From positions 70,249-134,248 of the forward strand of contig DASSFI010000080.1 in the NCBI GenBank assembly GCA_035694465.1: 64,000 bases of DNA, written 5' to 3'. Positions 2,820-63,898 of this stretch are shown here, one piece after another. The DNA comes from Pyrinomonadaceae bacterium. GTDB taxonomy: Bacteria > Acidobacteriota > Blastocatellia > Pyrinomonadales > Pyrinomonadaceae. The position numbers were made by a program, and so were the translations under genes. The notes beneath the pieces are model-generated. The model had not been told where the DNA came from and searched no databases. It worked only from the letters and a program-made list of their open reading frames with translations. The stretch's first letter is position 1. Each line of letters starts with the position of its first letter.

Positions 2820-4706
2820 ATGTCAGCTGAGACTCACGAGGGCGTGCACCGGCACCCGGCACCGACGAGCTTCATCCGCAAGTACATCTTTAGTATCGAC
2901 CACAAGGTCATCGGCATTCAGTACATCATGCTCGCGCTCGCAGCGGTGCTGGTCGGTATGGCGATGTCACTGCTGATGCGACTGAACTTGTCGTGGCCTG
3001 GTACGCATTGGCCCATTCTGGAAACCTTGTTTCCGACGGGCGCGCCAGGCGGTGTGATGACGCCGGAGTTCTATCTATCATTGGTCACGATGCACGGCAC
3101 CATCATGGTGTTCTTCGTTCTCACCACCGCGCCACAGGGCGGCTTCGGAAACTACTTCCTGCCGATCCAGATCGGCGCCGAAGACATGGCCTTTCCGGTG
3201 TTGAACATGTTGTCGTTCTGGGTCACCCTCGTGGGCTTCATCGTGATCCTGCTCGCGATCTTCGTCGAAGGTAATGCCTCACTCGGACAGGCTTTCTCTG
3301 CGCTTGGACCATCATTCACCGGCGGCAGCGGCACGGTTGGACCAATCGGCGGCTGGACCGGTTACGCGCCGTTGAGCGCGCTCGGCAAGATTGCCGGACC
3401 AGGCCAGGGCGCCGGCATGAATCTCTGGGTGATCAGTATCGCCATCTTCTGCGTCGGCTCACTGCTGGGCGCGTTGAACTTCATTACTACGCTACTGAAT
3501 ATGCGCACCAAGGGCATGACGCTGATGCGCATGCCGTTGACTTGCTGGGCGTGGTTCACCACTGCGGTGCTGGCGCTCTTGTCGTTTCCAGTGCTCCTCG
3601 GCGGCGGCATCCTGTTGCTGCTCGATCGCATCGCGGGGACGAGCTTCTTCATTCCGAGTGGTCTGTACGTAAGCGGCCTGCTTTCCGGCAGTAATCCAAA
3701 CTTCCCATTGCATACCGGCGGTTCGCCAATTCTCTGGCAGCACTTGTTCTGGTTCTTCGGACACCCGGAAGTCTATATCGCCATCCTCCCGGGCATGGGC
3801 GCAACGTCGCACATACTCGCCACCTTCGCACGCAAACCGGTCTTTGGTTATCGCGCGATGGTGTTCGCCATCTTTGCGATCGGACTACTCGGGTTCTTCG
3901 TGTGGGGCCACCACATGTTTATCAGTGGTATGAGTCCTTACTCGGCAATCGCATTTTCAGTATTGACGCTCTCGATCGGCGTGCCGTCAGCAGTGAAAAC
4001 ATTTAACTGGCTGGGTACGTTGTGGGGGGCACGTATTCGTTTTACGACGGCGATGTTGTTTGCACTCGGTTTCGTTTCGTTGTTCGTCGCCGGTGGTATC
4101 ACGGGATTGATTCTCGGGCAGAGTTCGCTGGATCTGGCGATGCACGACACCTATATCGTCACCGCACACTTCCACCTCGTGATGGGTGTGGCGTCGATCT
4201 TCGGAATGTTTGCAGCGCTCTACTTCTGGTTCCCGAAGATGTTTGGGCGATATATGAGTGAGGGTATTGGCCGGATTCACTTCTGGCTCACGTTCATCGG
4301 CGTCTACACGATCTTTGTTCCGATGCACATCATGGGAATCGTCGGCATGCCACGCCGCTATTCAAGCTTCGGTGAATATGAATTCCTGAAGACGTTGCAT
4401 CCGCTGGTGCTGCTCGTGTCAGTGGCGGCAGTGATCACAATCTCGGCGCAACTGCTTTTCTACTTCAACGTTTTCTGGAGCATCTTCAAAGGCAAGAAGG
4501 CGCCGGATAATCCGTGGGACGCAACCACCCTCGAGTGGACCACTGCGACACCACCGCCACACGATAATTTTGCGGGAGTGTTACCGACGGTCTATCACGG
4601 TCCTTACGAGTTTGCAGTTCCCGGAGCTCCGAACGATTTCATAATGCAAACTGATAGTGGGGCCGAAGTGCCGGACGGGCATGGCCACAATGGTAACCAG
4701 CACTAA
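2820..4706 (+). CDS. ctaD: Cytochrome c oxidase subunit I
   Basis: 628 aa, at least 12 TM helices, subunit I signatures WFFGHPEVY and GHHMFISGM. Confidence 0.95.
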   Translation: MSAETHEGVHRHPAPTSFIRKYIFSIDHKVIGIQYIMLALAAVLVGMAMSLLMRLNLSWPGTHWPILETLFPTGAPGGVMTPEFYLSLVTMHGTIMVFFVLTTAPQGGFGNYFLPIQIGAEDMAFPVLNMLSFWVTLVGFIVILLAIFVEGNASLGQAFSALGPSFTGGSGTVGPIGGWTGYAPLSALGKIAGPGQGAGMNLWVISIAIFCVGSLLGALNFITTLLNMRTKGMTLMRMPLTCWAWFTTAVLALLSFPVLLGGGILLLLDRIAGTSFFIPSGLYVSGLLSGSNPNFPLHTGGSPILWQHLFWFFGHPEVYIAILPGMGATSHILATFARKPVFGYRAMVFAIFAIGLLGFFVWGHHMFISGMSPYSAIAFSVLTLSIGVPSAVKTFNWLGTLWGARIRFTTAMLFALGFVSLFVAGGITGLILGQSSLDLAMHDTYIVTAHFHLVMGVASIFGMFAALYFWFPKMFGRYMSEGIGRIHFWLTFIGVYTIFVPMHIMGIVGMPRRYSSFGEYEFLKTLHPLVLLVSVAAVITISAQLLFYFNVFWSIFKGKKAPDNPWDATTLEWTTATPPPHDNFAGVLPTVYHGPYEFAVPGAPNDFIMQTDSGAEVPDGHGHNGNQH

Positions 4707-5352
4707 GAAAGTAACGAGCAAGGGGATCGGTTCGGGTGGTAAATTTCCCGGGCCGAACGGTAAGAAGCCAGGCGGGAATGGGTTTCACGGCGGTGGCAAT
4801 CGGCCAAAACGGCCCACCAGTTACCGCCTCACGATGTGGATGGTGCTGGCCGCCATCATCATGATGTTTGGAGCGCTTTCGGCGGCGTACGTCATGGTTT
4901 CCGAAGAGGAACGGAAGCCAGTTCCGATGCCACGCATGTTCTTCGTGAGCACGGCACTGATCCTCGTGAGCAGTGTGACGTTTCAGCGGGCTAAAAGATC
5001 TTTGCAACAGGATCGTCCGGGCGCTTACCTGAGATGGTTATTGGCGACGCTGGGGCTCGGAATCAGCTTTCTGGTGTCGCAGCTCGTTGGTTGGCGCGAG
5101 CTTGCGAGAGCCGGTGTTTATTTTTCCGGACATCCGCGCAGTACGTTTTTCTATCTCGCGACGGCATTGCACGGAGGACATCTGCTCGGCGGCATTGGCC
5201 TTGTGCTTTACCTCGTTATCAGGCGGGTAAGACCGTTGTGGCAATTGCACGCGGAGAAGAACACGGCGTGGACCAGAGTTGTCGGGCTTTACTGGCATGC
5301 GATGGATGGGATTTGGATTTGGTTATTCGCGCTCTTATTGATCTTTAAGTAG
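4681..5352 (+). CDS. Heme-copper oxidase subunit III family protein, paralogue 1
   Basis: ATG at 4681; the track ORF starts at GTG 4657, and either start overlaps the ctaD end. Gly/Lys/Pro-rich N-terminal tail, then TM helices ending in the subunit III motif LYWHAMDGIWIWLF. Confidence 0.7.
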   Translation: MATMVTSTKKVTSKGIGSGGKFPGPNGKKPGGNGFHGGGNRPKRPTSYRLTMWMVLAAIIMMFGALSAAYVMVSEEERKPVPMPRMFFVSTALILVSSVTFQRAKRSLQQDRPGAYLRWLLATLGLGISFLVSQLVGWRELARAGVYFSGHPRSTFFYLATALHGGHLLGGIGLVLYLVIRRVRPLWQLHAEKNTAWTRVVGLYWHAMDGIWIWLFALLLIFK

Positions 5353-50582: not shown

Positions 50583-50609
50583 TTCTGTGTTTTTGTGCCT
50601 TACTGTGGC
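50583..50609. repeat. Family B single arm (variant) between convergent operons
   Basis: ttctgtgtttttgtgccttactgtggc. Contains the stop of the FHA gene. Confidence 0.55.
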
Positions 50610-51478
50610 TGGATCCGGATCGTGAAATTGCAGATCGCAATCCTCTGATCCGCCGTGACCTCGGTCGGAGCTTCCCGCGTTAATTCTTTCCCATTAACAA
50701 GCGTCGGATTGCGGCCCTTCGCCACCACCCAGTAGCGCCCCTCGTTGTCTCGCGAGAGCACTGCATGCACGCGACTGACTTCCGGATCACCCTTGATCGG
50801 CAAATCCACCGAGATACTTCGTGAACCTCGCCCGATCGTTATCTCATTCTTCATGATCGGCACCACCGCTTCGCGCACGCCGTTCTGCCAGATCTCAACC
50901 TGAAAAAGCGGCGCCGCTTTCGGTCGCACTACTGTCTGCTCGCTTTCACTCACATCCGAAGCACGCTCGACCACCGTGTCGTTGAGACTAAACGCCGGCG
51001 CTGTGCGTGAGGGATCCACACGCGGCGTCACCATCGTGTGTCCGCTTTCGGTTTCATCCCAAACTGCCTGCACCCGAAACTCGCCTTTGTTGAGCGTTCC
51101 GTCAACACGCAGCTCAACTGCGAACGATTTGACTGCGAGTTGAGTTTGCCCGCTCAATTCGCGCGCCCGCTCCGACAAAACATGAAAGAGACCCTGCTCG
51201 AGTCCACGTCGTTTATCACCCTGCCATTCCTTGTCGTCGTCGGCGCTCAGGTAAACAATGTACTCGCGCGGAATGTAAGTTGGGCCACCTGGCGGCGTGA
51301 ACATCTCGCGCTGCATCGCCGCTTCGACTTCGCGCGCAATCTTCACCAAGAACTCTTCCCAAACGCGCCGGGGTTTAGCGTGCTCGTCAGCGGCTTCGAG
51401 TAGATCCTCGCCGGTTTCACCATCTATCCATTTTCTAATCGATTCCAGCAGACCCAAGCTATCGCTCCTTCTCCGCAC
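50600..51478 (-). CDS. FhaA-like protein: DUF3662-type N-terminal domain plus C-terminal FHA domain
   Basis: C-terminus ITIGRG...VSRVHAVL...NPTLVNG is a canonical FHA pattern. The N-terminal half resembles the FhaA N-domain. Confidence 0.8.
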   Translation of the reverse strand: MRRRSDSLGLLESIRKWIDGETGEDLLEAADEHAKPRRVWEEFLVKIAREVEAAMQREMFTPPGGPTYIPREYIVYLSADDDKEWQGDKRRGLEQGLFHVLSERARELSGQTQLAVKSFAVELRVDGTLNKGEFRVQAVWDETESGHTMVTPRVDPSRTAPAFSLNDTVVERASDVSESEQTVVRPKAAPLFQVEIWQNGVREAVVPIMKNEITIGRGSRSISVDLPIKGDPEVSRVHAVLSRDNEGRYWVVAKGRNPTLVNGKELTREAPTEVTADQRIAICNFTIRIQPQ

Positions 51479-51483
51479 TCAAT

Positions 51484-53037
51484 CTAATCAAACTTAACGT
51501 ATCGCTTGTTGACCCAGCCACGGTCCGACGAATAGGGATCGGTCTTCGGTCTGCCGTGTTGCACCACCTGCACTTCATACCAGTTGCTATTGCTATCAGC
51601 GCTCAAGACTTTCACTTTTGAACCCGACTCAGCCAAGCCAATCGGCAAATTCGAGCTGTTCGCCACTGGCCGCAGATTGACGTCGGTAGTGGTAACGCCT
51701 TCACGACCAATTATCACCGGCTCGACATTTTGAGCAATCGGAGCAAGCGGATTCCAGCGCGTCGTTACATACTTGTGGGTCGCGAGCAGCATGCCGGAGA
51801 ACGCGAGGATCAACCCAACGGCAACGAGAGCACGACGCTTTTTACTGGCCGGCAAGACTGATTCAACCGTCGACATCTTCTGCGGCCGTCGTTCACTTTG
51901 CGCAGCCTCCATTTCCTGACGTGCACGCATTTCCATCTGCCGTTGCACTTCGCGATTGATGGGAACCACGATACGCGGACGTTTGCCCGTATCGAGATCG
52001 GCAGGCTCAATCCGCGGTACGTCGAAGTGGGGTCGAGGCGGCGCCGCTTCAGTAAACTCCTCTTCAGGTTCTACCGAAAGATCCTCGCTCGGCTTGCGTC
52101 TCATTTCCTGGACCACGGCGGCGGGAACCATCTGGAGCGGCTTCGTGGCCGGCAGACCCGCGTCGGCGATGTCGTCCCAGAATTCTTCAACCGTTTGATA
52201 ACGTGCTTCAGGACGATTCTGCGTCGCTTTCTCCAGCACGCGCACGACTGACTTCGCCCAGGGAGTGTTATTGATTTGCGCCGGTAATTCAGTGATCGCA
52301 TGCTGCGCAAAGCGACGCGGTGATTCTCCAGCCAGGAGTGTGTAAGTCGTTTTTGCGAGTGAATAGATATCAGCGGCCGGTGACAGGTGATCGTGACGTA
52401 TTCGCAAGCCGCTCGTATCGAGCTGACCGGTCTGCATCAACGGATTATGTTCCGGTGCTGAATAGATGTTGGTTCCCACTCGCGTGATCGCGCCTTCAGT
52501 GGCATCGATGCGAGCGACGCCGAAGTCGGCAATCTTGACGAGTTCTTTGTCGGCAGTCAGCAACAGGTTTTGCGGTTTGATATCTCGATGAATGACGCCA
52601 CATTTGTGCGCGTGCGCGAGACCGGAACAGACCTGTTCGAGATAGAACAAGGCTCGCTGAAGGGATAGCGGCCGCGTCTTGGTGAGTGCAAAAAGATCGC
52701 CGCCGGGAAGATACTCGAGCACGATGTAGTGAAAAGTGGTGCCCGTGAGATCGATGGCAGTGCCGTGTCCGAGACGATTTATTACATTTGGATGACGGAC
52801 GCGATCGAGCGCCACTGCTTCATTTTGAAAATTTGTGACGAGAGTTCGCTCCAGTTCCGCGTCTGGTTCGTCCTGGAGATGTAGATTTAGAGCCTTGATA
52901 ACGATTGTGCGCGGAGCACCTTCGACAGCAGCATTATCATTCGCGACGTAGATCTCGGCATAGCTGCCACGTCCGAGGCATTCGACGATATCGTAGCGAC
53001 CGTCGAGTCTGCTGTTTTGAAGTCTCAGTTCAGCCAT
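51484..53037 (-). CDS. Transmembrane Ser/Thr protein kinase with extracytoplasmic SH3b-like domain
   Basis: Hanks kinase motifs GRGSYAEIY, VIKAL, HRDIKPQNLL, DFG and APE. One TM helix. C-terminus VNLRPVANSS...NWYEVQV...GWVNKRYV is SH3_3-like. Start moved to ATG 53037 because the upstream codons are repeat-encoded. Confidence 0.85.
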   Translation of the reverse strand: MAELRLQNSRLDGRYDIVECLGRGSYAEIYVANDNAAVEGAPRTIVIKALNLHLQDEPDAELERTLVTNFQNEAVALDRVRHPNVINRLGHGTAIDLTGTTFHYIVLEYLPGGDLFALTKTRPLSLQRALFYLEQVCSGLAHAHKCGVIHRDIKPQNLLLTADKELVKIADFGVARIDATEGAITRVGTNIYSAPEHNPLMQTGQLDTSGLRIRHDHLSPAADIYSLAKTTYTLLAGESPRRFAQHAITELPAQINNTPWAKSVVRVLEKATQNRPEARYQTVEEFWDDIADAGLPATKPLQMVPAAVVQEMRRKPSEDLSVEPEEEFTEAAPPRPHFDVPRIEPADLDTGKRPRIVVPINREVQRQMEMRARQEMEAAQSERRPQKMSTVESVLPASKKRRALVAVGLILAFSGMLLATHKYVTTRWNPLAPIAQNVEPVIIGREGVTTTDVNLRPVANSSNLPIGLAESGSKVKVLSADSNSNWYEVQVVQHGRPKTDPYSSDRGWVNKRYVKFD

Positions 53038-53044
53038 TTTTATT

Positions 53045-53070
53045 GCCACAAAAAGGCACAAAAGCACAAG
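53045..53070. repeat. Family B single arm (consensus-like)
   Basis: gccacaaaaaggcacaaaagcacaag, in the PP2C-kinase junction. Confidence 0.75.
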
Positions 53071-53089
53071 ATCGCACGCTTAGATGCAG

Positions 53090-54595
53090 TTAGGGAGCAT
53101 TGCTGTTGGTGGGAGGTTTGGTTAGCTCGTCGTAGTGGTTGAGCACCTTCCATCGATCCTTCTGCGTTTTCACACTGATCATGCTCAAGCCAAAAATCGC
53201 TTCCTTCTTAACTGTGGCGTTAGTGGGCGTAGGATTGAGATTCGACTTGGCGATGGCCGCGTCAAAAGCCTTGGTCGCCTCCTCGGTGTTTCCGGTCAGA
53301 AGATTTGCGCGACCGTAAAGATACAAAAATTCCGCATTCGGCGATTCAAGTGCATTCTGAACTCCGGCAGTCACCAATTCCTTTCCGACGTCACTCGCCA
53401 GCCACGCACGCGGATCCTGATCGACCTGGCGCCGCGCTCGCTCAAATTTCACAAAAGGCTCTTCGGGCGATGGAGTGGTAACGGGTGTTGCCGCCGGAGT
53501 CGGTTCGACCTTGGACGCGAGGAAGGGAATTCGTTCCTTGAAACGAGCGCCCGCATAAAACGCTCCGCCAATCAGTAGCAACACGAGCACTACAACAAAC
53601 GCCTTCGCCGCGCCACCACCGCTTTGTGCCGCCCCTGGTTCGGCTACGTTGAGTGGTTCGCTTGAAAGTGGTGTTACCTGAGCCGGTTCACTTGCCGGCG
53701 CAGGGAAGGCGATTCGCGAGGCCGGCAGGAACGTCGTGTCACCAAGTGCTGACCCATTGCCGGATTGTGCGGCGGCATAAGCTCGCTCTGTTTCGGGCGA
53801 GATCGTCGGTTCGAGATCGGCTGATCGCTCGTCGGCCCTGAGATGTTCGCCGACACGGATGGCGACGACGGTCAAGTTGTCTTCAGCGCCGCGATCGTAG
53901 CAACGTCGTTTGAGTTCACTGCACAGTTCGTCGAGGTTGTTGCTGACGACCATCAATTGGCGCAGTTCGTTATCAGAGACGTGACGTGTGATGCCATCCG
54001 TACAGAGCAGAAACTCCGTGCCGTCGTCGACCTCTATCGTCTTCATATCGACTTCGACGCCTTGTTCTGCGCCGAGAGCGCGACTGATCACGTTCTTGCT
54101 GGGATGATTTGCGGCCTGTTCCGGCGTCATGCGTCCGGCGCGTACTTCTTCTTCGACGATCGAGTGATCTTCAGTTTCGCGATGCAGTTGTCCGTCAGGA
54201 GTCAGCCGGTAGAGTCGCGAGTCGCCGACGTGACCGAACGTAGCGACGTTGCCCTTTAGATGAAGCGCAACAATCGTCGTCGCCATCATGGAAAACTTCG
54301 CGTGCTCCTGGGCCATCTGGTGGATCGAAGCGTTGGCGCGCTGGATCGCGAGCTCCATCAGGTCTTCAATGTCAGCGCCTTCAGTTTGATGACGAAACGC
54401 TTCATCGAGCACTTCGATCGCGGTTTGGGATGCGACTTCACCCGCTTCGGCGCCGCCAACGCCATCAGCTACCGCGAAGATTTGGCGCTCGCGGTCGTGC
54501 AAAAGGGCGTCCTCATTCAATGGTCGCCGTTCGTTCAGTCCGCGATCTGTAAGCGCTGCGGATTGGACCGCAAAGGTCCTGGTCTCTTCGCTCAT
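53090..54595 (-). CDS. PP2C-family Ser/Thr phosphatase with TM helix and extracytoplasmic helical domain
   Basis: NEDALL, FAVADGVGG and LLCTDG motifs. A TM helix (VVVLVLLLIGGAFYAGA) is followed by a helical, TPR-like tail. Confidence 0.85.
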   Translation of the reverse strand: MSEETRTFAVQSAALTDRGLNERRPLNEDALLHDRERQIFAVADGVGGAEAGEVASQTAIEVLDEAFRHQTEGADIEDLMELAIQRANASIHQMAQEHAKFSMMATTIVALHLKGNVATFGHVGDSRLYRLTPDGQLHRETEDHSIVEEEVRAGRMTPEQAANHPSKNVISRALGAEQGVEVDMKTIEVDDGTEFLLCTDGITRHVSDNELRQLMVVSNNLDELCSELKRRCYDRGAEDNLTVVAIRVGEHLRADERSADLEPTISPETERAYAAAQSGNGSALGDTTFLPASRIAFPAPASEPAQVTPLSSEPLNVAEPGAAQSGGGAAKAFVVVLVLLLIGGAFYAGARFKERIPFLASKVEPTPAATPVTTPSPEEPFVKFERARRQVDQDPRAWLASDVGKELVTAGVQNALESPNAEFLYLYGRANLLTGNTEEATKAFDAAIAKSNLNPTPTNATVKKEAIFGLSMISVKTQKDRWKVLNHYDELTKPPTNSNAP

Positions 54596-56283
54596 TGCAC
54601 AGCCTCCAGCTTAAGGGGAGAAGAACTCTTAGCCACCGGCTTTTCTATCACGACCTTGTCGCGTGCATTTCGATTTGAAAATGCCATCAGCATCCCCAGC
54701 ATTGCAAAGCTCGTAATCAGACTGAAACCACCATGGCTGACGAAAGGCAAGGTGATTCCCGTCATCGGCAAAGCTCTTAAAATACCGCCAATATTCACTA
54801 AAGCCTGAAAACCAACAAACGCTGTTAGACCTGCTGCGCACAGCTTCGTAAACATATCACGCGCCTCCAGCGAAGTGCGAACTCCAGCGACCACGAAAAT
54901 TATGATCGCCAGGATAATTACAGCACCTCCAGCGAGGCCGGTTTCTTCGGCAATTGCGGCATAAACGTAGTCAGAATCGGCAATCGGAATTACTTCGGGG
55001 AAACCCAGACCGAAACCACGCCCAGTGGTTCGACCTGATGCAATACCCCACTGCGCCTGGGCCGGTTGAAACGCGAGCTTGTCGAACCAGATATCGACGT
55101 TCACCGTCTTCTGCATTGCGGGACTCTGATCGGCAAGCTCCTTCATCTTCGGATCCTTGCTGAGTGATTCGTCATACTCTTTCTTCCACCACGAAACTTC
55201 CGGCGAAGGCGGATCGAAACCGTCGAGCCAAAGGTGGAAACGCTGCTGGATACGAGACGGAAGTGCCGCGCTGATCGGTCTCGCGACGGTCGGCAGGAGT
55301 GGAACCTTTTCCTGAATGTCGCGAGGTAGTGCGCCGACAACGAGGATTCCGATAACAATCACGACAGAACCGACAAATAACAGAAGCTGAGGCCAGCGTC
55401 GCACTGCGACGAGATAAAGCGTCGTGTAAGCACCGCTGAAGATCAGCATCTGCCCGAAATCTTTGAGGGCAAAGAACGGGATGAAAGGCATCACCGCCAT
55501 CACGAGAAGCGGCACGATGTCGCGCGCTCGCGGAATGCCCCAGTACGTTTCAGCGAGATCTTTGTAACGAGCGGTCAGAATACCGGCGAAGCCGACCAGG
55601 AATGGAATCTTCGAGGGCTCCCATGGCGTCATGTTGCCGAGTGCTTTACCGGCGCTCGAGGTGACGACCGCGATCGCGAGCGGTACGAGTGTGAACAGCA
55701 CGATGATGAAACTGTTGCGTTGCAGCCATAACAGAAAACCGTCGCGCACGCAGAACGAATAGGCAATCGCAAATGCGAGGAACGAAAAGACGGGGATCCA
55801 CGTGTAGCTCGAAGTGATTGCGTTCCAAAGCGAGTAATTCGATTCTTTCTTCGGGATCTGGTCGATGGCGATCGGTTGCGCAGGTGTGGGTGGCAATCCC
55901 ATTAGCTGCTTCTTGACCGGATCGTAGTTCTCCATGATGTAACGCGTGCGCAGTGCGTCCATCTTTTCTTCACGCGCCTGTGATTTGTTGCGAGCGTTAT
56001 ATTCCGGATCGCTATAGAGGCGATACTGGATCAACATACCGAACGAGAAGAGCAGGATGGCGGTTGTGTAGAGCACCCAGTTACCGGCGAAGCGTTTACT
56101 ACGCGAGAGCCAAAGAGCGATGAAGATCAGGGGAACGAACATCATCAGGTCGCGGACGGCGCCGATGATCGAAGTCTCATACCCACGCAACAGACCGGCG
56201 CGATGCACGGCAAAGTATCCGGCGATCTCGAGGCCGAGGATCATCAGGATGATCAGTAAATGTGATGACGCGCGATTCTTCAT
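54592..56283 (-). CDS. SEDS-family peptidoglycan polymerase (FtsW/RodA), enlarged (563 aa)
   Basis: 10 or more TM helices and C-terminal LPFVSHGGFSL motif. Its stop overlaps the PP2C start (ATGA). Confidence 0.8.
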   Translation of the reverse strand: MKNRASSHLLIILMILGLEIAGYFAVHRAGLLRGYETSIIGAVRDLMMFVPLIFIALWLSRSKRFAGNWVLYTTAILLFSFGMLIQYRLYSDPEYNARNKSQAREEKMDALRTRYIMENYDPVKKQLMGLPPTPAQPIAIDQIPKKESNYSLWNAITSSYTWIPVFSFLAFAIAYSFCVRDGFLLWLQRNSFIIVLFTLVPLAIAVVTSSAGKALGNMTPWEPSKIPFLVGFAGILTARYKDLAETYWGIPRARDIVPLLVMAVMPFIPFFALKDFGQMLIFSGAYTTLYLVAVRRWPQLLLFVGSVVIVIGILVVGALPRDIQEKVPLLPTVARPISAALPSRIQQRFHLWLDGFDPPSPEVSWWKKEYDESLSKDPKMKELADQSPAMQKTVNVDIWFDKLAFQPAQAQWGIASGRTTGRGFGLGFPEVIPIADSDYVYAAIAEETGLAGGAVIILAIIIFVVAGVRTSLEARDMFTKLCAAGLTAFVGFQALVNIGGILRALPMTGITLPFVSHGGFSLITSFAMLGMLMAFSNRNARDKVVIEKPVAKSSSPLKLEAVQ

Positions 56284-56285
56284 TT

Positions 56286-56304
56286 ATCTGTGTAATCTGT
56301 GGAT
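56286..56304. repeat. Family A single arm filling the PBP-SEDS junction
   Basis: atctgtgtaatctgtggat in a 23-nt gap. The adjacent small hairpin ggatact/agtatcc reaches into the PBP stop. Confidence 0.8.
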
Positions 56305-56306
56305 AC

Positions 56307-58142
56307 TCATTTGAAGTATCCAAGGTCCTTCGCTTTCAACACGAGCGCGGCGGCAATCGGCGCCGCAGATCTTGATCCGTAACCTCCGCCTTCGACAATC
56401 ACCGCCATCGCGAGCTGTGGTTTCTCCAGTGGCGCAATGCAGAGGAACCAGCCGTCAATGCGCGGGTTGTCGTTGTCCATGATTACTTCGTCGTACTCGC
56501 GAATGATGTTGCCTTTATTATCCTTCTCGATCTTGTGTCTCGTCTTTGGCTCGCCAGTTTTTGGATCGTAAACCGGCTGGACTTTTTGCGCCGTTCCAGT
56601 TTTACCACCTGTGTTGATGCCCGCCGCTTTGACCGGTCCAAACACACCACGAGCCGTGCCGCTTGGACCACCCGTAACCAATCCCATGATCGATCGCAGC
56701 CGCGCTGCCGTCTGCGCGGTCATCACCTGATTGAACATCTCAGGCTTCACGTTGTACTCGATTCGCGGCTTCATCAACTTGCCTTCCATATTCCCGATTG
56801 CTGACGCCGCGAGTGCCATCTGTAGCGGTGTCATCTGTCCGGCATAACCCTGACCGTATCCCATCAGCGCCAGATCGTAACGAGTAACTTGCTTGCCGGT
56901 AACGATCGTGGCTTCGCGAGGCGCCAGCGCGCGTTTGACCGCGTCGGTGCTGGCGTCAATGATCTGCGGCAGCTTTCGGCCCCGCAACGCTTCCGATGGA
57001 GTGTCGTAAGCACCGATGCCGAGCAACTGTGCCGCGCGTTTCAATTTTTCCGCGCCAAGCTTTACACCCATTTGCGCGAAGTACTGGTTACACGAAACCT
57101 CATACGCATGATCGATCTTGATGCGCCCGTGAACTTCACCTGCTCCACCATCGTCGTAGATCACGTTCGCACCGGGCGCTGCGTAGTAACCACCACCACT
57201 ACAGGTGAACTCCGTATCCTGTTCACCCGCGAGAAATGCGGCAGTCATTGTCACTGTTTTGAAGGTCGAGCCAGGGATGTAGTAAGCGCCAAGTGCCCGA
57301 CTCACGAGCGGATTGTCACGCTGGTTTGCTTCGAGACGAATCCAGGTTGCTTCGTCGTCAACTTCGGCGAGGCTGTAAGAAGGCTCACTGTAAAGCGCGA
57401 GTATGTCGCCCGTCTGGGGATTCAGAATTACAACTGCGCCGTGTTTTCCTTTCAACTGATCCACCGCAGCTTGTTGCAGCGTGCGATCAATCGTCAGACG
57501 GACGTCCTGATTGCCTCTGAACTCCACCGCTTGACCCTTAACCACCTCGAGCGCTTCCGGTAACGCCCCACTCTGAACTCCAAACAACGCTCGTTCCAGA
57601 CCCGGATCACCACGATCCGATCCGAAGATGTGGGCCATCGCCTTGTCCATCGGATACTCGCGCTGAATGTTGCCACTCGAATCACGTTTGTAGAAAGCAA
57701 GCGGTTGGTCCACACGCCCACTGCGATCAAAGATCCAACCGCGTAGGGTCGATTCTGAAAGACGCCGTCCGCGCAGATCCTTGTAGCTCAACTCCTGAAA
57801 CTTCTCGTTTCGTTCAGCCGCGTAATGCGCCCAGTAAATGTGAAACGAGAACAGTCCGATTGAAAGCAGGACGAACAACCATCGCAACGCTTTCAAGCCG
57901 CGATTCGTAGACGTCGAGCCGAGTCTCTTTCTGACTGCTTTCGGAAGATCTTCGGGAATGGGTGAAACTGTTTGCCGCCGACTCCGAACGAGTCCCAGCA
58001 ACAACAGCAGGATGATGAATCCAAATCCGCCGACGTAGATTAAGGTCAACAGCGCAGGCGTTCTTTCCAGCACGGGTGGGGTAGAAACAGGAGAGGGAGA
58101 GGCGGTTTGAAAGAGAAGTAAAAGTAATATGACCAGGTTCAT
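56307..58142 (-). CDS. Class B penicillin-binding protein (PBP2/FtsI-type transpeptidase)
   Basis: N-terminal TM helix and the active-site triad motifs STFK, SCN and KTGT. Confidence 0.9.
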   Translation of the reverse strand: MNLVILLLLLFQTASPSPVSTPPVLERTPALLTLIYVGGFGFIILLLLLGLVRSRRQTVSPIPEDLPKAVRKRLGSTSTNRGLKALRWLFVLLSIGLFSFHIYWAHYAAERNEKFQELSYKDLRGRRLSESTLRGWIFDRSGRVDQPLAFYKRDSSGNIQREYPMDKAMAHIFGSDRGDPGLERALFGVQSGALPEALEVVKGQAVEFRGNQDVRLTIDRTLQQAAVDQLKGKHGAVVILNPQTGDILALYSEPSYSLAEVDDEATWIRLEANQRDNPLVSRALGAYYIPGSTFKTVTMTAAFLAGEQDTEFTCSGGGYYAAPGANVIYDDGGAGEVHGRIKIDHAYEVSCNQYFAQMGVKLGAEKLKRAAQLLGIGAYDTPSEALRGRKLPQIIDASTDAVKRALAPREATIVTGKQVTRYDLALMGYGQGYAGQMTPLQMALAASAIGNMEGKLMKPRIEYNVKPEMFNQVMTAQTAARLRSIMGLVTGGPSGTARGVFGPVKAAGINTGGKTGTAQKVQPVYDPKTGEPKTRHKIEKDNKGNIIREYDEVIMDNDNPRIDGWFLCIAPLEKPQLAMAVIVEGGGYGSRSAAPIAAALVLKAKDLGYFK

Positions 58143-58151
58143 CCAGTTTCG

Positions 58152-59042
58152 CTACTCACTTTTACGCAATCGTACTTCCACGTCTCCGAATCCGACGACG
58201 TCGCCGTCTTCAATCAGTCGCGACTCACCGTAGGCGATGCGCCGGCCATTGATAAACGTTCCATTTGTTGAACCGGTGTCGGCGACGAGCAGTGTTCCTT
58301 CGGAAGTCATCAAGAGCGCGGCGTGTATTTTTGAAACGCTCGAGTCGTTTACGGTTAGATCGTTATCGGAAGCTCGTCCCACATTCAGCCGCCTGCCGCC
58401 CGGCTTAAAGATCAATGGGACTTCACGAGTTCCGGACGGGGTGGTGGTGCGTGCGATCACCTGAATGTCAGGCATCGTCGGCGCAGCGCCAGGAATCGGC
58501 ACGCCCGTCTTCGCGGCACGCGCCTCTTCGTCCTGCCGTCTCAGGTCTTCTTCGAATTCACCGAAGTTTGGATCAACCGAGATTCCGGTCGTGAAAATGT
58601 CGACTTCAGCTTCGACCTCGACAGGCCCGAGTGTGCGATAGCGATGGTCGTTGATGTGATCGATCGCGGCGGCCAGAACTTCGTTTTTCAGGTCGTTGAG
58701 AATTTCCGGCGGTGCTTCGGAATGAGTGCCCCACTCGACTTTGAGCACGAGATGATGTGGCGCGATTCTGCCTTTTCGACCTTCGTCTCTGACGCGCTCA
58801 TCGATCAGTCTCTTCATTCTTTCGATGAGCTTCGAGGTAGTGAGCCCGCTGCGAGGTTCGACGGTGCGGCCGAGTCTACGGTCTACAACGCTGCCCATGC
58901 CTTCGAGCACGCGCCGCAAAAGGCGTTCGGGCAAAGCTTCCTCGCGCTTCTTTTTTGCGGCTTGCTCTTCCTTGAGCTTGCCTGTCGGGTCGTCAGAGTC
59001 AGTCATGAATAGCCAATACGAGTTTTCTCGCGAGCGGTTCAT
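58152..59042 (-). CDS. FhaA-like protein: DUF3662-type N-terminal domain plus FHA domain
   Basis: C-terminus LNVGRASDNDL...VSKIHAALL...GSTNGTFINGRRI is an FHA pattern. An alternative ATG lies at 59006. Confidence 0.8.
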   Translation of the reverse strand: MNRSRENSYWLFMTDSDDPTGKLKEEQAAKKKREEALPERLLRRVLEGMGSVVDRRLGRTVEPRSGLTTSKLIERMKRLIDERVRDEGRKGRIAPHHLVLKVEWGTHSEAPPEILNDLKNEVLAAAIDHINDHRYRTLGPVEVEAEVDIFTTGISVDPNFGEFEEDLRRQDEEARAAKTGVPIPGAAPTMPDIQVIARTTTPSGTREVPLIFKPGGRRLNVGRASDNDLTVNDSSVSKIHAALLMTSEGTLLVADTGSTNGTFINGRRIAYGESRLIEDGDVVGFGDVEVRLRKSE

Positions 59043-59155: not shown

Positions 59156-62100
59156 TTAGAAGGTGAGCTTCAGTGAGAATCTTAGCGTGCGTGGGCCCCC
59201 GAAACTGTAAAACGAAGGAAATCCTCCGCCCGCGAGATTTCGGCCACTCATCGCCGTTGACTGTCCAAACGCCAGGTTCGGAGTAAACGAGTCTCCGGCG
59301 AATGTGTTTCCAATAACCAGATCATTCCCTGACAAGTCCTCAAAATTCGCCCGATTGAAGAGATTGAATGCGTCGGCCTGAAATTGGAGAGCAACAGTTT
59401 CAGAGAGGTTGAACTTCCGCCTCAACGCCAGGTCAACCTGGTAGAACTGAAATCCTCGCAAGGCATTCCGCGCTAAGTTTCCCTGTTGCAGATCCGCCGG
59501 CACAATGAATGCCCCCGGATTCAGTCTTCGACCACCAGCTACTAACGGATCGGAAAAATACGCCGGATTACCCGCGGCAACATCTGGACGCAGCGCCGCA
59601 ACACCGAAGGTTGTCGGAAACAGGTAGACAACGTTCAGCGGTTTTGCTGAGCGCATATTGAAGATTGAATCAAGCGCCAAGTTGCGCGTGAGCTTGTTTC
59701 CGATTCCTTTCCGCAAGGGAGCCGGCAGTTCGTAAGAAATCAATCCGGTAACCTGGTGACGAATATCGAAATCGGATGGACCACGATCAAACGCCGGATC
59801 GCTGCTCGTCATGATCACTCGCCGCGTTGAGTCTTCAGTAACGTTATCAGACGAGCGGGCCAACGTGTAAGAAGCGAGTACGCCGAATCCTTCCCGCATC
59901 GGACGTTCAAACTTAACCTGCAATGCGTTGTAGTCAGACTCGCCACGATTTCTCGTTAACCGGAGAAAGTTGAAGTCAGGATTCTGGTTCAGCAGTGTTT
60001 CGGTGAGTAAGAGCCTTCTTCCGGCCGAGCCTAAATACGTCGCCGAGAGCGACTGGTTTGCTCCCAACCCCTGCTGCAGAGACGCATTCCAGTTGATTAC
60101 GTACGGTCGTTTCAGTTGCGGATCGAACGCTACCAACGGCAAGTCGCCGGGGCTCGCTATTAATGTTGGAAACGGTGAATTGAAGACCGCAGCGCCTGAC
60201 ACGAACGGAATCGAGTTTGCAAAGAGGTCGCCTGAGCGATCCTGTCCGGTGTCGTAAACAAGACCCACACCGCCACGAAAGACGAGTTCTCGATTGGAGC
60301 GGTCCGAAAGCTGATACACAACTCCCAGCCGCGGTGCGAAGTTCAGGAACGTCGTCTTCCAGAGCGAACCTCCCGCACTCGCGAGTTTGAGTGTGGATGG
60401 ATCGTCAACCTGATCCACGGCAAAGGCGTGGCCGGTTGACGGTGGTGGCGCGAGATCCCAACGCACACCGTAAGTGAGCGTCATCCGTTGCGACTGTTTC
60501 CATTCATCCTGAGCGTAGAGTGAAAAACTCTTGAACACAGGATTCTGTCGATCGACGAAGCTGAGTTGATTTACTCGCGTGGCAACTCCCGTGATTGCCT
60601 GGTCCACACCGTTGAATAGCACGTTCTCTTCAGAGGCACGCAAACCGATCACGGGCGAGAGTCTGCGAAAATCACCGCCGAATCTGAATGAATGATTTCC
60701 ATCGACTTTTACCACCGATCCCAACACGTTGAACTGGCGCTGCAGATTTGATTCTTCACCGCCATTCATCCAGGCCGCGTTTCTCGAATTGAGATCGAAG
60801 GCAAACGCAGCAGTAGAGAAGGGGCTCACCGGTACAGATGCACCGCCAAAATTGTCGAAGGCATAAGCACTGGTAACGCGTGCGCGGCTATAGCTCGCAC
60901 GCAGCTCAAAAATCGTTGAGGATGAATAAGTATGAGTGATCGATCCGTTCAGCATTTGCGAACGACTGTGGATGCGATTCGTTGTATTGAGTGAAAAACC
61001 GCTCGGTCCACGTTGCGTAGCATCGGAATCTGCGAAGTTGTAACGCGCATTCAGCGCCGTGCTGCTGTTGAACATGTGGTCAATCTTCAAGCTGCCCACA
61101 TCGTGCCGCGCTGGATTTGCAAAACTCGAAGCAAACTCCGCAAAGCCATCCGGTCTTACGGATCCATTTGGAAACGGAAATGTCTCGAGATATGAGCGCA
61201 GCTCCGCCGGAGACGCCGCGCGCGAACTCAACGAAGGCACGTCAGTCACGCCCACCATCGGTTGACGGAAGCGAAGTCCTTCGTATGACGCAAAGAAGAA
61301 GGTTTTGTCGCGTTTGATTGGGCCACCGAATGTGCCTCCAAAAGAGTTCAATCTCTTCGGTGGTTGTTTCAGACTACGACTATTAGCAAACCAATCATTC
61401 GCATCGAGTGCGTCGTTACCAAAGAAGTGAAACACCGAACCGTGAAATTCGTTGGTCCCGGCACGAGTGACCACTTCAACCTGGGCGCCCGGGCGTCCGT
61501 ACTCGGGTTGTAGTGCAACAGTCTTGATATTGAGCTCCTGAACTGAGTCGTATGAGGCGAGAGAGTTTGCTCCACCACTCGCCGTGAGTGCCGGCACATT
61601 ACCTGCTGCCGAAGCTCCCGGAGATTCACCACCGGCGGCGATGCCAAAGTTTGCATTCACTCCGTCGACCGTTAATCCGTTCATCGTCGATCGTTGGCCA
61701 TTGACGGAGTAAGTAGCTTGGTATCGTTCGACTCCCGAATTGGGATTCACAGGACTCACGCCGGGCGACAAGATGACGAGAGGGAGGAAGCTTCTTCCCT
61801 GAAGGGGAAGATCTATGATCTGATTGACTCTGACTGTCGTGCCAAGCGCCGTGCCGGTCCCCTCCACCAGGTAGCCGCCGGCAGCTGTAACTTGCACAAG
61901 CTCTTGAATACCCGGAGCCACCGTTCCCGGCAGCGCTTCGACTGGAACCTCGACTTTCTTCGGTGCTTCGGTGCCGGTAAACGCCACTTCATCGATCGCG
62001 ACAAACGAGGTGTACTGAGTCATCAACTTAAAGTTCAAACCAACTTCGGCAATCTCTTCCTGCTTCTGCCTCGTCACCACCTGGTCCTCGACACTTGCGA

Positions 62101-63898
62101 GTTCTTCTTCCATAAGATCGTCAATGCGCCGGCGACCCCAGAGTGTGGCCAGCACGTCGTGATCGGATTGCGAATCGGGAAACTCGACCGGAATGTCGCG
62201 CACAAAATCCTGTCCGGCATATTTTCCTTTCAAGCGCAGCGTTCCTTTTGCACCATTGGAGTAACGACCGGAGAAAATCACCGGCTTGACTCCGAAGAGA
62301 TCGGGAACGCGTTTCGGATAAACGTCGCTGACCGGCAAGTCCGTCCAATCGATCGAGATGTCGGTCAAGAGCGGGTTGCGAATTCGTTCGTTGAATAGTT
62401 GGGCCACTTTCGAGGTGTCGCCTGCGCCTGTGATGTAGTCGACCTCACCGCGGCCGTATTCGGCCATCTTGTCTAACAGGTAGCGATTCGGCGCCGGACT
62501 GAAACCCATCGCGAACACGCGCGCATTTTTATGCTTCTGCACTTCGCTGAGGATCTCCATGTCGTTGCCGACCTGGCCGTCCGTCAAAAAGCAAACGATG
62601 CGCACGTGGTCTTGAGAGTCTGATGGTTCCAAAGCCGCCTTGATGGCGGTCATCATTTCGGTGCCGCCAGAACTTTCGTGATCTTTAAGAAAATCTTTGG
62701 CCTTGCGCAGATTGTCACGGGTGGCGAGCACCGGTTCCGGAAACAAAATCTGCGTTTCACCCGCAAACGTGATCAGATTGAATGTGTCGTGCGGGTAAAG
62801 ATTTTTGAGAGCCAGATTCACAGTCTCTCTGGCCTTCTCGAACGGAAAACCATCCATCGAGCCCGAGGTATCGAGTACAAAGACGAGTTCTTTCGGCATG
62901 ACATCTTCAGCGGTAACGCGCTGGGGTGGCTGTAGGATGAGAGTGAAGAAGCCACCCCTTTCGGAGCGATGGGTAAGGACGGCATCGTTGATAGTGTCAC
63001 CGGCTACACGATAAGTGAGGACAAAATCTTTGTTTGGAATGGTGTTGTGGTCTTTCAAACGCACCACCGCACGTTTCTCGTTGACTTGCTGAACGTCGGT
63101 TTCGTGAGTTGTCGAGTTGAGCCCAACGAGCGGCACACCTGCATCCAAATCGATTTCGAGCGAGATATCGTGACCGGCACGCACTCCTTCGGTCGCGCTG
63201 GGAGGAGAAGTTCGTGAGGCGTCATTTTCCTGATTCGAGGGGCTGGCTGGTTCCGGTTGTTCTTCGGCGACCGGCATATATCGTGGTCCAACAACCATCG
63301 GAAACACCCACTCGTAAGAACCGTTTTCGTATTTCAGAGTTTCGACATAACTAATCACAATGCGAATGCTTTGACCCGGCATGATGTTGGCGACCTGTTG
63401 GGTAAAAATATTCGGTCGTTCCTGGTCCAACAGGCTCGCAACTCTGCCGATTTGTTTAGCGGCGGCGTAGGCGGCTTTCGCCTCTTCACGGCGCATTATC
63501 TTTCCTTTAATAACGCGCTCTCCAATCAACATCGTCAGATCGTCGACCGCGGCAGCCTGTGGCAGCGGAAATGTGTAGACGGCCTCGATCTTTTCCTGGG
63601 AGTTGTTCTCAAAATCCTGGGTGACAGTTACGCGTGACAGAAACCCGCTGACCTGCGCTTTTACGGAAGTGTGTTTTAGCGGGCACTCACTAACTGGCTT
63701 TCCATCCTGACCAAGAATTTGCAGCGCGCCCGGCGACTGCTGCTGCGCCTGCGCTTGCGACTTCTCGTTGGCGGCAGACACTCGCTCGTCGTGCGCAAGG
63801 TTGGAAAGCATTAAGACGACCGTTAGGGAGATCGCAGTGAGTCCAATCCATTTCAGAATTGATCTGCTACGCATAGTCTTGTCCTTATCTGCGGACAC
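59156..63898 (-). CDS. 1580-aa fusion: signal peptide, VIT domain, vWA domain, then TonB-dependent-receptor-like plug and beta-barrel
   Basis: aa ~60-200 are VIT-like (VKAQVSGFLSRVTVTQDF...YTFPLP). aa ~335-510 are vWA with MIDAS DTSGSMDG. From aa ~665 come the Oar-type motifs SVNGQR, DGVNAN and PEYGRPGAQVEVVTRAGTNEFHGS. The protein ends ...LRFSLKLTF, a C-terminal Phe as in outer-membrane barrels. Confidence 0.8.
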   Translation of the reverse strand: MSADKDKTMRSRSILKWIGLTAISLTVVLMLSNLAHDERVSAANEKSQAQAQQQSPGALQILGQDGKPVSECPLKHTSVKAQVSGFLSRVTVTQDFENNSQEKIEAVYTFPLPQAAAVDDLTMLIGERVIKGKIMRREEAKAAYAAAKQIGRVASLLDQERPNIFTQQVANIMPGQSIRIVISYVETLKYENGSYEWVFPMVVGPRYMPVAEEQPEPASPSNQENDASRTSPPSATEGVRAGHDISLEIDLDAGVPLVGLNSTTHETDVQQVNEKRAVVRLKDHNTIPNKDFVLTYRVAGDTINDAVLTHRSERGGFFTLILQPPQRVTAEDVMPKELVFVLDTSGSMDGFPFEKARETVNLALKNLYPHDTFNLITFAGETQILFPEPVLATRDNLRKAKDFLKDHESSGGTEMMTAIKAALEPSDSQDHVRIVCFLTDGQVGNDMEILSEVQKHKNARVFAMGFSPAPNRYLLDKMAEYGRGEVDYITGAGDTSKVAQLFNERIRNPLLTDISIDWTDLPVSDVYPKRVPDLFGVKPVIFSGRYSNGAKGTLRLKGKYAGQDFVRDIPVEFPDSQSDHDVLATLWGRRRIDDLMEEELASVEDQVVTRQKQEEIAEVGLNFKLMTQYTSFVAIDEVAFTGTEAPKKVEVPVEALPGTVAPGIQELVQVTAAGGYLVEGTGTALGTTVRVNQIIDLPLQGRSFLPLVILSPGVSPVNPNSGVERYQATYSVNGQRSTMNGLTVDGVNANFGIAAGGESPGASAAGNVPALTASGGANSLASYDSVQELNIKTVALQPEYGRPGAQVEVVTRAGTNEFHGSVFHFFGNDALDANDWFANSRSLKQPPKRLNSFGGTFGGPIKRDKTFFFASYEGLRFRQPMVGVTDVPSLSSRAASPAELRSYLETFPFPNGSVRPDGFAEFASSFANPARHDVGSLKIDHMFNSSTALNARYNFADSDATQRGPSGFSLNTTNRIHSRSQMLNGSITHTYSSSTIFELRASYSRARVTSAYAFDNFGGASVPVSPFSTAAFAFDLNSRNAAWMNGGEESNLQRQFNVLGSVVKVDGNHSFRFGGDFRRLSPVIGLRASEENVLFNGVDQAITGVATRVNQLSFVDRQNPVFKSFSLYAQDEWKQSQRMTLTYGVRWDLAPPPSTGHAFAVDQVDDPSTLKLASAGGSLWKTTFLNFAPRLGVVYQLSDRSNRELVFRGGVGLVYDTGQDRSGDLFANSIPFVSGAAVFNSPFPTLIASPGDLPLVAFDPQLKRPYVINWNASLQQGLGANQSLSATYLGSAGRRLLLTETLLNQNPDFNFLRLTRNRGESDYNALQVKFERPMREGFGVLASYTLARSSDNVTEDSTRRVIMTSSDPAFDRGPSDFDIRHQVTGLISYELPAPLRKGIGNKLTRNLALDSIFNMRSAKPLNVVYLFPTTFGVAALRPDVAAGNPAYFSDPLVAGGRRLNPGAFIVPADLQQGNLARNALRGFQFYQVDLALRRKFNLSETVALQFQADAFNLFNRANFEDLSGNDLVIGNTFAGDSFTPNLAFGQSTAMSGRNLAGGGFPSFYSFGGPRTLRFSLKLTF

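Follow-up and report, generated by a model that had tools for sequence, protein, structure and literature searches.

An Oar-type TonB-dependent transporter with a predicted VIT-vWA N-terminal extension in Pyrinomonadaceae: a candidate periplasmic, Ton-associated binding head

TonB-dependent transporters of the Oar-like type, built from a CarboxypepD_reg domain, a plug, and a PF25183 barrel, are abundant in Acidobacteriota and Myxococcota. TonB_C domains dock on TonB boxes, and every solved TonB-dependent transporter that we know of has its plug, TonB box, and N-terminus on the periplasmic side. In several transporter classes an extra periplasm-facing domain lies between the signal peptide and the TonB box, as with the Ig-like N-terminal extension (NTE) of the SusC type, the STN domain of the FecA and FpvA types, AMIN, and the TonB_C domain at the N-terminus of MxcH (NF038079). 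A survey of 34,893 TonB-dependent transporters recognized five N-terminal architectures, none with a VIT or vWA domain (PMC6434023); that survey required a Pfam Plug match, which the protein described here lacks. Here, we describe a gene on the minus strand (59156..63898) of a 64,000-nucleotide stretch of contig DASSFI010000080.1 from a soil acidobacterium, a Pyrinomonadaceae bacterium (the whole stretch is called the window), whose predicted product carries a VIT-vWA module at this same position. The most fitting description is a TonB-dependent transporter whose N-terminal extension is unprecedented, within an apparently undescribed TonB-linked VIT-vWA family.

The gene is one unbroken open reading frame (ORF) with a GTG start, stop included, encoding 1580 amino acids (aa), as a first-pass annotation of the window had stated, and residue numbers throughout follow this count. 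The real start is probably the ATG at 63874 (Met9), with a Shine-Dalgarno-like AAGGA (63882..63886) 7 nucleotides (nt) before it; this start gives a gene of 59156-63874 and the 1572-aa NCBI product P0001 ('TonB-dependent receptor [Pyrinomonadaceae bacterium]'), which is 100% identical to the window protein. The translation, read by eye, opens with a predicted Sec signal peptide (aa 9-42, MRSRSILKWIGLTAISLTVVLMLSNLAHDERVSA; 63773..63874) that has a basic n-region, a hydrophobic core of ~17 residues, and a VSA/A site. All features of the gene given below lie on the minus strand.

The C-terminal half is assigned to the Oar-type TonB-dependent transporters by profile and fold comparisons. Its beta-barrel (aa 816-1580; 59159..61453) matches PF25183 (OMP_b-brl_4) with an E value of 1.9e-134 and a score of 450 bits, where 30 is the cutoff, and the alignment takes in model positions 1-85 and 124-830 of 838; PF00593 is matched with an E value of 1.6e-11. 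The C-terminal Phe is invariant in the family alignment A4 (13/13 sequences). The top 50 Foldseek matches in the Protein Data Bank (PDB) for the AlphaFold2 (AF2) model of this half are TonB-dependent transporters without exception; the model is poor (pLDDT 54, plug <50) and useful only to confirm the transporter class, from which a barrel of the 22-strand TonB_dep_Rec type is predicted. The plug (aa ~676-815; 61454..61873) was placed by comparing the A4 family profile with PDB entries, where it matches the plugs of FusA (4zgv residues 65-202, E 1.6e-13) and FepA (1fep residues 28-157, E 2.5e-5). Neither the whole protein nor the junction segment matches Pfam Plug (PF07715), but this is uninformative because canonical Oar-like neighbors fail PF07715 as well. 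With a barrel, plug, TonB box, signal peptide, and C-terminal aromatic residue, the predicted protein carries the hallmarks of a TonB-dependent transporter. The motifs quoted in the first-pass annotation are all in place: DTSGSM at 343-348, SVNGQR at 731-736, DGVNAN at 745-750, PEYGRPGAQVEVVTRAGTNEFHGS at 798-821, and LRFSLKLTF at 1572-1580.

The TonB box, which had been proposed as something to look for, can be recognized from its position in A4 as QELVQVTA (aa 665-672; 61883..61906; consensus VTVT). A4 includes two canonical Oar-like transporters (neighbors from L036 and L021), with which the window protein aligns end to end, and its xxVxVT[AS] column is kept in both groups: in the canonical transporters it comes directly after CarboxypepD_reg, and in the window protein it begins only ~8 residues after the end of the VIT-vWA module (aa ~656). 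CarboxypepD_reg itself (PF13620/PF13715) was found neither on the whole protein nor, at E values up to 10, on aa 620-918, whereas the canonical neighbors match it with E values of 2e-17 to 2e-20; no STN domain (PF07660) was matched by Pfam on the whole protein. As judged from A4 and Pfam, and as the first-pass annotation had anticipated, the VIT-vWA module thus fills the exact slot of the usual N-terminal extension in what reads as a clean swap. The fusion therefore shares with Oar (MXAN_1450) and Oar-like proteins the PF25183 barrel, the PF00593 match, the TonB box right after the N-terminal extension, the plug motifs, and the C-terminal Phe, but the canonical CarboxypepD_reg domain of ~80 aa is replaced by 600 aa of VIT-vWA sequence, and barrel identity to the canonical transporters compared is only ~25%. 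Compared with known NTEs, the new extension differs in fold, a VIT beta-sandwich plus a Rossmann-like vWA domain with a metal ion-dependent adhesion site (MIDAS), and is ~7-fold larger.

The ITIH-like VIT-vWA module extends over aa ~59-656. Its VIT domain (aa 74-184; 63347..63679) matches PF08487 with an E value of 4.4e-34, and its vWA domain (aa 337-485; 62444..62890) is identified by PF13768 (E 2e-18), PF00092, and a Foldseek match to ITIH1. The MIDAS comprises the DxSxS motif seen in the translation and the family alignment (DTSGS, aa 343-347; 62858..62872), together with T413 (62660-62662) and D440 (62579-62581) from the same alignment, and the residues D343, S345, S347, T413, and D440 are invariant in 72/72 family modules. 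The post-vWA region (aa 486-656; 61931..62443) has a beta-sandwich, two long helices, and a conserved tail (...YTSFVAIDEV..PKKVEVPVE); it was delimited by the TIGR03788 match, the PARP4 and ITIH4 matches, the AF2 model and the ITIH1 fold, and the ends of paralogue tblastn matches. Earlier annotation of the VIT, vWA/MIDAS, and Oar-type barrel domains is thus upheld by Pfam and NCBIfam, and the module is present as described, but its proposed end at about aa 640 falls short: PARP4 and ITIH4 matches reach aa ~637, while the conserved family region stops near aa 656, where the tblastn matches of stand-alone paralogues end (aa ~650-656).

Two sets of described proteins share this module. Human PARP4 is matched over aa 71-637 (E 7e-31), as are ITIH4 and ITIH1, and the AF2 model of aa 40-720 (pLDDT 72.5) aligns with ITIH1 (6fpy/6fpz) over ~610 columns (Foldseek E 7e-35, TM 0.57-0.64), recovering the overall fold of the ITIH heavy chain with the post-vWA region included. 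Confidence in this model is low between aa ~641 and 686, a hint that the tail is flexible. ITIH1 (6fpy) and PARP4 therefore have the same three-part fold and an intact MIDAS, but identity is only 15-19%, the fusion is bacterial and presumably periplasmic rather than extracellular or vault-associated, and the bikunin or hyaluronan transfer chemistry of ITIH proteins is not implied for it. The second relative is the marine proteobacterial sortase target family TIGR03788 (NCBIfam), which matches aa 77-670 over model positions 3-602 of 629, that is, nearly the whole model, with a score of 519.5 bits that lies below the equivalog cutoff of 551.65. In both cases the VIT-vWA head is tethered to the envelope via its C-terminal end, but TIGR03788 proteins have an LPXTG motif, whereas the fusion lacks it, continues into a TonB box, plug, and barrel, and belongs to an acidobacterium rather than a proteobacterium. 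No sortase gene lies downstream of the fusion, where the genes encode FHA, penicillin-binding (PBP), and RodA proteins; the window holds only 100 nt upstream.

That the two halves form one polypeptide is well supported by comparison with other genomes. Among 5.8 billion proteins searched, there are more than 120 full-length homologues of 1460-1600 aa with the same Pfam set, 58-100% identity, and 97-100% coverage, and these are collinear and come from independent assemblies, which excludes an assembly artefact. GC content and skews are level across the presumed junction near 61900-62000, the interval in which the first-pass annotation had suggested looking for a frameshift or assembly join; none was found. 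The fusion is a genuine single polypeptide. It could still be argued that the gene arose as a chimera, by loss of a stop codon between adjacent genes, or survives as a non-functional relic, given that stand-alone VIT-vWA genes directly precede Oar-like genes at L015, L036, and L047. This placement makes read-through of adjacent genes plausible as an evolutionary origin. As an account of the present gene, however, an artefact is refuted, and a relic can hardly be upheld, in view of the homologues with an identical junction, the even composition, the conservation of the MIDAS, TonB box, and terminal Phe, and the clean joint: Pfam on the junction segment and alignment A4 gave neither a second signal peptide nor a CarboxypepD_reg remnant, and no Gly-rich linker or remnant of the stand-alone C-terminal domain is seen there.

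The architecture is not rare, which in part bears out an objection that the first-pass annotation had itself allowed for, namely that it might be common and already annotated. It makes up more than 120 clusters at 90% identity and ~8 full-length representatives at 50% (P0121, P0122, P0125, P0127, P0129, P0131, P0132, and P0171, of which Pfam confirms two), and it is frequent in soil metagenomes. Every named homologue is from Pyrinomonadaceae, Pyrinomonadales, or Acidobacteriota, with generic automatic names ('TonB-dependent receptor' or 'VIT domain-containing protein'). The first-pass annotation had regarded the fusion as undescribed; in literature searches that combined VIT or vWA with TonB-dependent transporters we found no published account of it, although the proteins themselves are by no means scarce in databases. 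A scan using one genome per species, from which the best 80 loci were analyzed, found the fusion in 12 loci, and the genomes concerned are labeled Pyrinomonadaceae, Pyrinomonadales, or more broadly Acidobacteriota or uncultured bacterium; L010, L011, L013, L014, and L067 are divergent members with 35-43% identity. In a neighbor-joining tree of the N-terminal modules (without bootstrap), all fusion modules group together and apart from stand-alone modules, which suggests, from these sequences, a single ancestral fusion. Independent fusion events were considered on account of the corresponding barrel tree (also without bootstrap), which has at least three deep lineages, and were set aside in favor of a single origin because the N-module tree clusters all fusions.

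Most loci of the scan match only aa 1-656 (55-63% identity) and encode a widespread family of secreted, stand-alone VIT-vWA proteins of 800-1000 aa, which lie within L015-L081 (e.g., L027:8630-12526, L030:848-4659, and L023:8191-12874) and are found in Pyrinomonadaceae, other Blastocatellia, Bryobacterales, and Terriglobia. These share with the fusion the signal peptide, the module, and its conserved tail, but after aa ~656 they continue into a Gly-rich linker, sometimes a TonB_C domain, and a conserved C-terminal domain of ~90 aa instead of a TonB box, plug, and barrel. The C-terminal domain (e.g., L016:2980-3279; alignment A7) has the consensus KLHPSIxAVVxRL...GKAEVQVWLTDKS...LKxLGFEV...IGRIxIEKLxALAELxxVRYVxPQ, and it has no Pfam match and no significant PDB sequence match.

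These paralogues are repeatedly tied to the Ton system. Among 61 stand-alone loci for which neighbors were counted, 21 are directly preceded, on the same strand, by a TonB-family gene; the encoded protein combines a transmembrane segment at the N-terminus with a Gly-rich linker and a TonB_C domain, which Pfam confirms in 21/21 cases (best E 5.6e-17). In 14/61 loci, a TonB_C domain lies within the VIT-vWA protein itself, and Pfam detects it in 11/59 stand-alone tails (best E 7e-20; examples are L023 and L068; TIGR01352 is also matched). The upstream gene and the internal domain are complementary arrangements, a classic signature of functionally linked partners, since just one locus (L023) has both. 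A canonical Oar-like transporter gene lies within 0-2 genes on the same strand at seven loci (L015, L021, L034, L036, L040, L042, and L047), and the metagenome-assembled genome SMAG_U11306 encodes both a fusion (L004) and a TonB plus stand-alone pair (L030). Beyond this family, distant VIT-vWA relatives of 1900-2400 aa bear Secretin_N, a periplasmic domain of an outer-membrane channel. Literature searches found no description of TonB-linked stand-alone VIT-vWA proteins.

Three further observations concern these relatives. The TonB_C domains of L023:10001-12874 and L027:8630-9817 also match positions 2-98 of NF038079 (myxochelin receptor MxcH); by this match, MxcH-type transporters would bear a TonB_C-like domain at their own N-terminus, which implies a Ton component fused to the N-terminus of a transporter. 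In P0208 (1915 aa) and P0256 (2392 aa), Secretin_N (PF03958) repeats lie downstream of the VIT-vWA module, and the Secretin C-domain was not matched in either at E<=1e-4. At L047, a class A beta-lactamase-family gene (3725-4732; PF13354, E 2e-56) lies between the stand-alone VIT-vWA and Oar-like transporter genes.

Taken together, these findings lead us to a hypothesis, held with slightly better than even confidence, in which a real Oar-type transporter bears the VIT-vWA module as a Ton-associated binding head in the periplasm, without commitment to either of the sub-mechanisms considered below. A periplasmic location is inferred from the topology of the transporter class and from the paralogues, in which the same module is fused to TonB_C and Secretin_N, both of them periplasmic. 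A role with the Ton machinery is proposed because the nearest relatives pair with a TonB-family gene or carry TonB_C; the TonB operon, the TonB_C fusion, and the fusion before a TonB box all place the head at the junction of TonB and transporter. The result would be a metal-dependent protein-binding head of ~600 aa at the channel's periplasmic entrance, with a tether of ~10 residues between it and the TonB box.

The first-pass annotation had offered both a periplasmic device and an unusual surface-exposed topology. The transporter topology and the TonB_C and Secretin_N fusions favor the former, leaving surface exposure unlikely. To our knowledge, no pathway exports an N-terminal passenger of 600 aa through a plugged 22-strand barrel. 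A surface adhesin or ligand trap, for instance one threaded through the barrel during assembly, could be likened to the vWA adhesin CglB on the Myxococcus Glt platform; vWA domains are classical extracellular adhesion modules, and Myxococcus gliding is mentioned (PMC12204202) as a case in which a vWA adhesin works together with an outer-membrane barrel and a Ton-like motor. We consider such display highly improbable here, as the plug is present, the TonB box directly follows the module, solved transporters keep all these N-terminal elements in the periplasm, and the paralogues join the same module to periplasmic domains.

How a periplasmic head would act can be narrowed only tentatively. A MIDAS-dependent contact might couple the transporter to a dedicated TonB-family partner complex, by analogy with the role proposed for SusC-like NTEs; we prefer this sub-mechanism while holding it with well under even confidence. 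In Bacteroides, the CarboxypepD_reg NTE occurs both on transporters and on TonB homologues, has been read as an element of complex formation, and is essential in BT1763 (bioRxiv 10.1101/2023.07.07.548152). The VIT-vWA module resembles that NTE in being found also on TonB-type proteins. Alternatively, and with less likelihood, the head may hold on to a polypeptide, whether cargo or substrate, during its passage into or out of the channel, which would fit Oar/PopC export and the FusA-like plug. The data point at least as strongly to a TonB-family link, which the first-pass annotation had not foreseen, as to the cargo capture that it had suggested, and the identity of the ligand and the direction of transport remain speculative.

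A stricter version of the cargo proposal would make the head a periplasmic cargo or substrate handler only, capturing a protein for export or ratcheting an imported polypeptide, with no role for a TonB partner. Parallels exist in both directions, Oar and PopC for export and FusB ratcheting ferredoxin at FusA for import, and vWA/MIDAS domains such as those of ITIH and the integrin I-domains typically bind acidic residues of protein ligands. The head lies at the channel mouth, and the best solved match of the plug is the protein importer FusA. The two plugs have an insertion in common: a Gly/Ser/Ala-rich segment (GIAAGGESPGASAAGNVPALTASGGANSLAS; window 61550-61645, aa ~752-783) aligns with a comparable insertion in FusA (4zgv), a protein-importing ferredoxin receptor; FepA and some of the divergent fusion members (L013, L014, and L067) lack it. 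Oar does export PopC, but its NTE is not required for that export (PMC6434023); moreover, no conserved candidate cargo gene lies beside the fusion, where the downstream cluster is kept only in close relatives, and cargo handling by itself does not explain why paralogues occur in operons with TonB or fused to TonB_C. We therefore regard this restricted role as rather unlikely.

Several points weigh against a periplasmic, Ton-associated head. No TonB-like gene adjoins the fusion in any of 13 fusion loci, the window included, so the Ton link rests on the paralogues and not on the fusion itself; even among the stand-alone paralogues, 27/61 have no TonB link in the DNA examined. Adjacency to Oar-like genes is modest (7/61), and Acidobacteriota have transporters of this type in great numbers. 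With ~70 kDa of folded protein next to the TonB box, in the space that separates the outer membrane from the peptidoglycan, the access of TonB could be hindered rather than helped, and the NTE of Myxococcus Oar is dispensable for PopC secretion (PMC6434023). Finally, the structural models cover the two halves of the protein separately, so that interdomain contacts lie outside them, and the C-terminal half is poorly modeled.

The surroundings of the fusion genes were also compared. Downstream of the window gene on the same strand (50600-59042) lie six genes encoding an FHA protein, a transpeptidase PBP, an FtsW/RodA protein, a PP2C phosphatase, a Ser/Thr kinase, and an FhaA_N plus FHA protein, a content that presumably resembles the actinobacterial fhaA-fhaB-pstP-rodA-pbpA-pknAB cell-wall signaling cluster. 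The order is common to the window, L001, L002, and L012, but the cluster is absent at L007, L010, L011, L013, and L014, and an opposite-strand gene intervenes in L001. A functional partnership was rejected, as the cluster is kept only in close relatives and broken in L001, and we treat it as inherited synteny. A scan of the 113-nt gap between the fusion gene and the FHA gene found no promoter or terminator, and the 64-kb window contains no other transporter, VIT, or TonB-like ORF.

On the other side, the close relatives L001 and L002 have an OmpA-like gene and an extracytoplasmic function (ECF) sigma-70 gene upstream in divergent orientation. These neighbors would suit a head that acts as a trans-envelope signaling extension, an analogue of the FecA-type STN domain through which an inner-membrane regulator and an ECF sigma factor would learn whether the transporter is occupied, and N-terminal extensions of TonB-dependent transporters are known as signaling devices (PMC6434023). 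Yet only close relatives have the sigma gene, at a distance of 1-4 genes and on the opposite strand; it is missing from the same five loci that lack the downstream cluster. STN-type, FecA-like transducers combine an STN domain with an adjacent FecR/FecI pair, but the fusion gave no STN match and no FecR-like anti-sigma gene was identified in the related loci. The window ends 100 nt upstream of the fusion gene, so its own upstream genes offer no help to this proposal, which we consider very unlikely.

The preferred reading of a periplasmic, Ton-associated head can be extended beyond the transporter. In Acidobacteriota and beyond, channel systems of the outer membrane could have in VIT-vWA modules a periplasmic accessory that has gone unrecognized and that grips a protein, be it a polypeptide cargo or the force transducer itself; we offer this extension as doubtful at present. 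Four arrangements would then bring the head to the periplasmic mouth of channels: an operon shared with a TonB paralogue, fusion with TonB_C, fusion with Secretin_N repeats, and fusion before an Oar-type TonB box. TonB-driven force would be applied through the gripped protein to protein translocation or to a dedicated transporter. The vWA 'force transducers' proposed in a recent report for Proteobacteria, PVC, and Bacteroidetes (Mol Biol Evol 2025, PMC12204202) likewise tie vWA domains to energized Ton/Tol systems through TolQR/ExbBD-like motors; as described there, in contrast to the fusion, they are anchored in the inner membrane, have no VIT domain, replace TonB_C, and are not fused to a transporter.

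For the dozens to hundreds of Oar-like transporters encoded by Acidobacteriota, substrates and N-terminal extensions alike are essentially uncharacterized, and the role of N-terminal extensions in any TonB-dependent transporter is still debated. A MIDAS-containing head on such a transporter provides a concrete experimental handle, and its recurrent genetic coupling to TonB_C proteins leads to the testable hypothesis of a new Ton accessory component. Should the ligand turn out to be a cargo polypeptide, the fusion would also bear on the movement of proteins by TonB-dependent transporters, as in PopC export by Oar and ferredoxin import by FusA.

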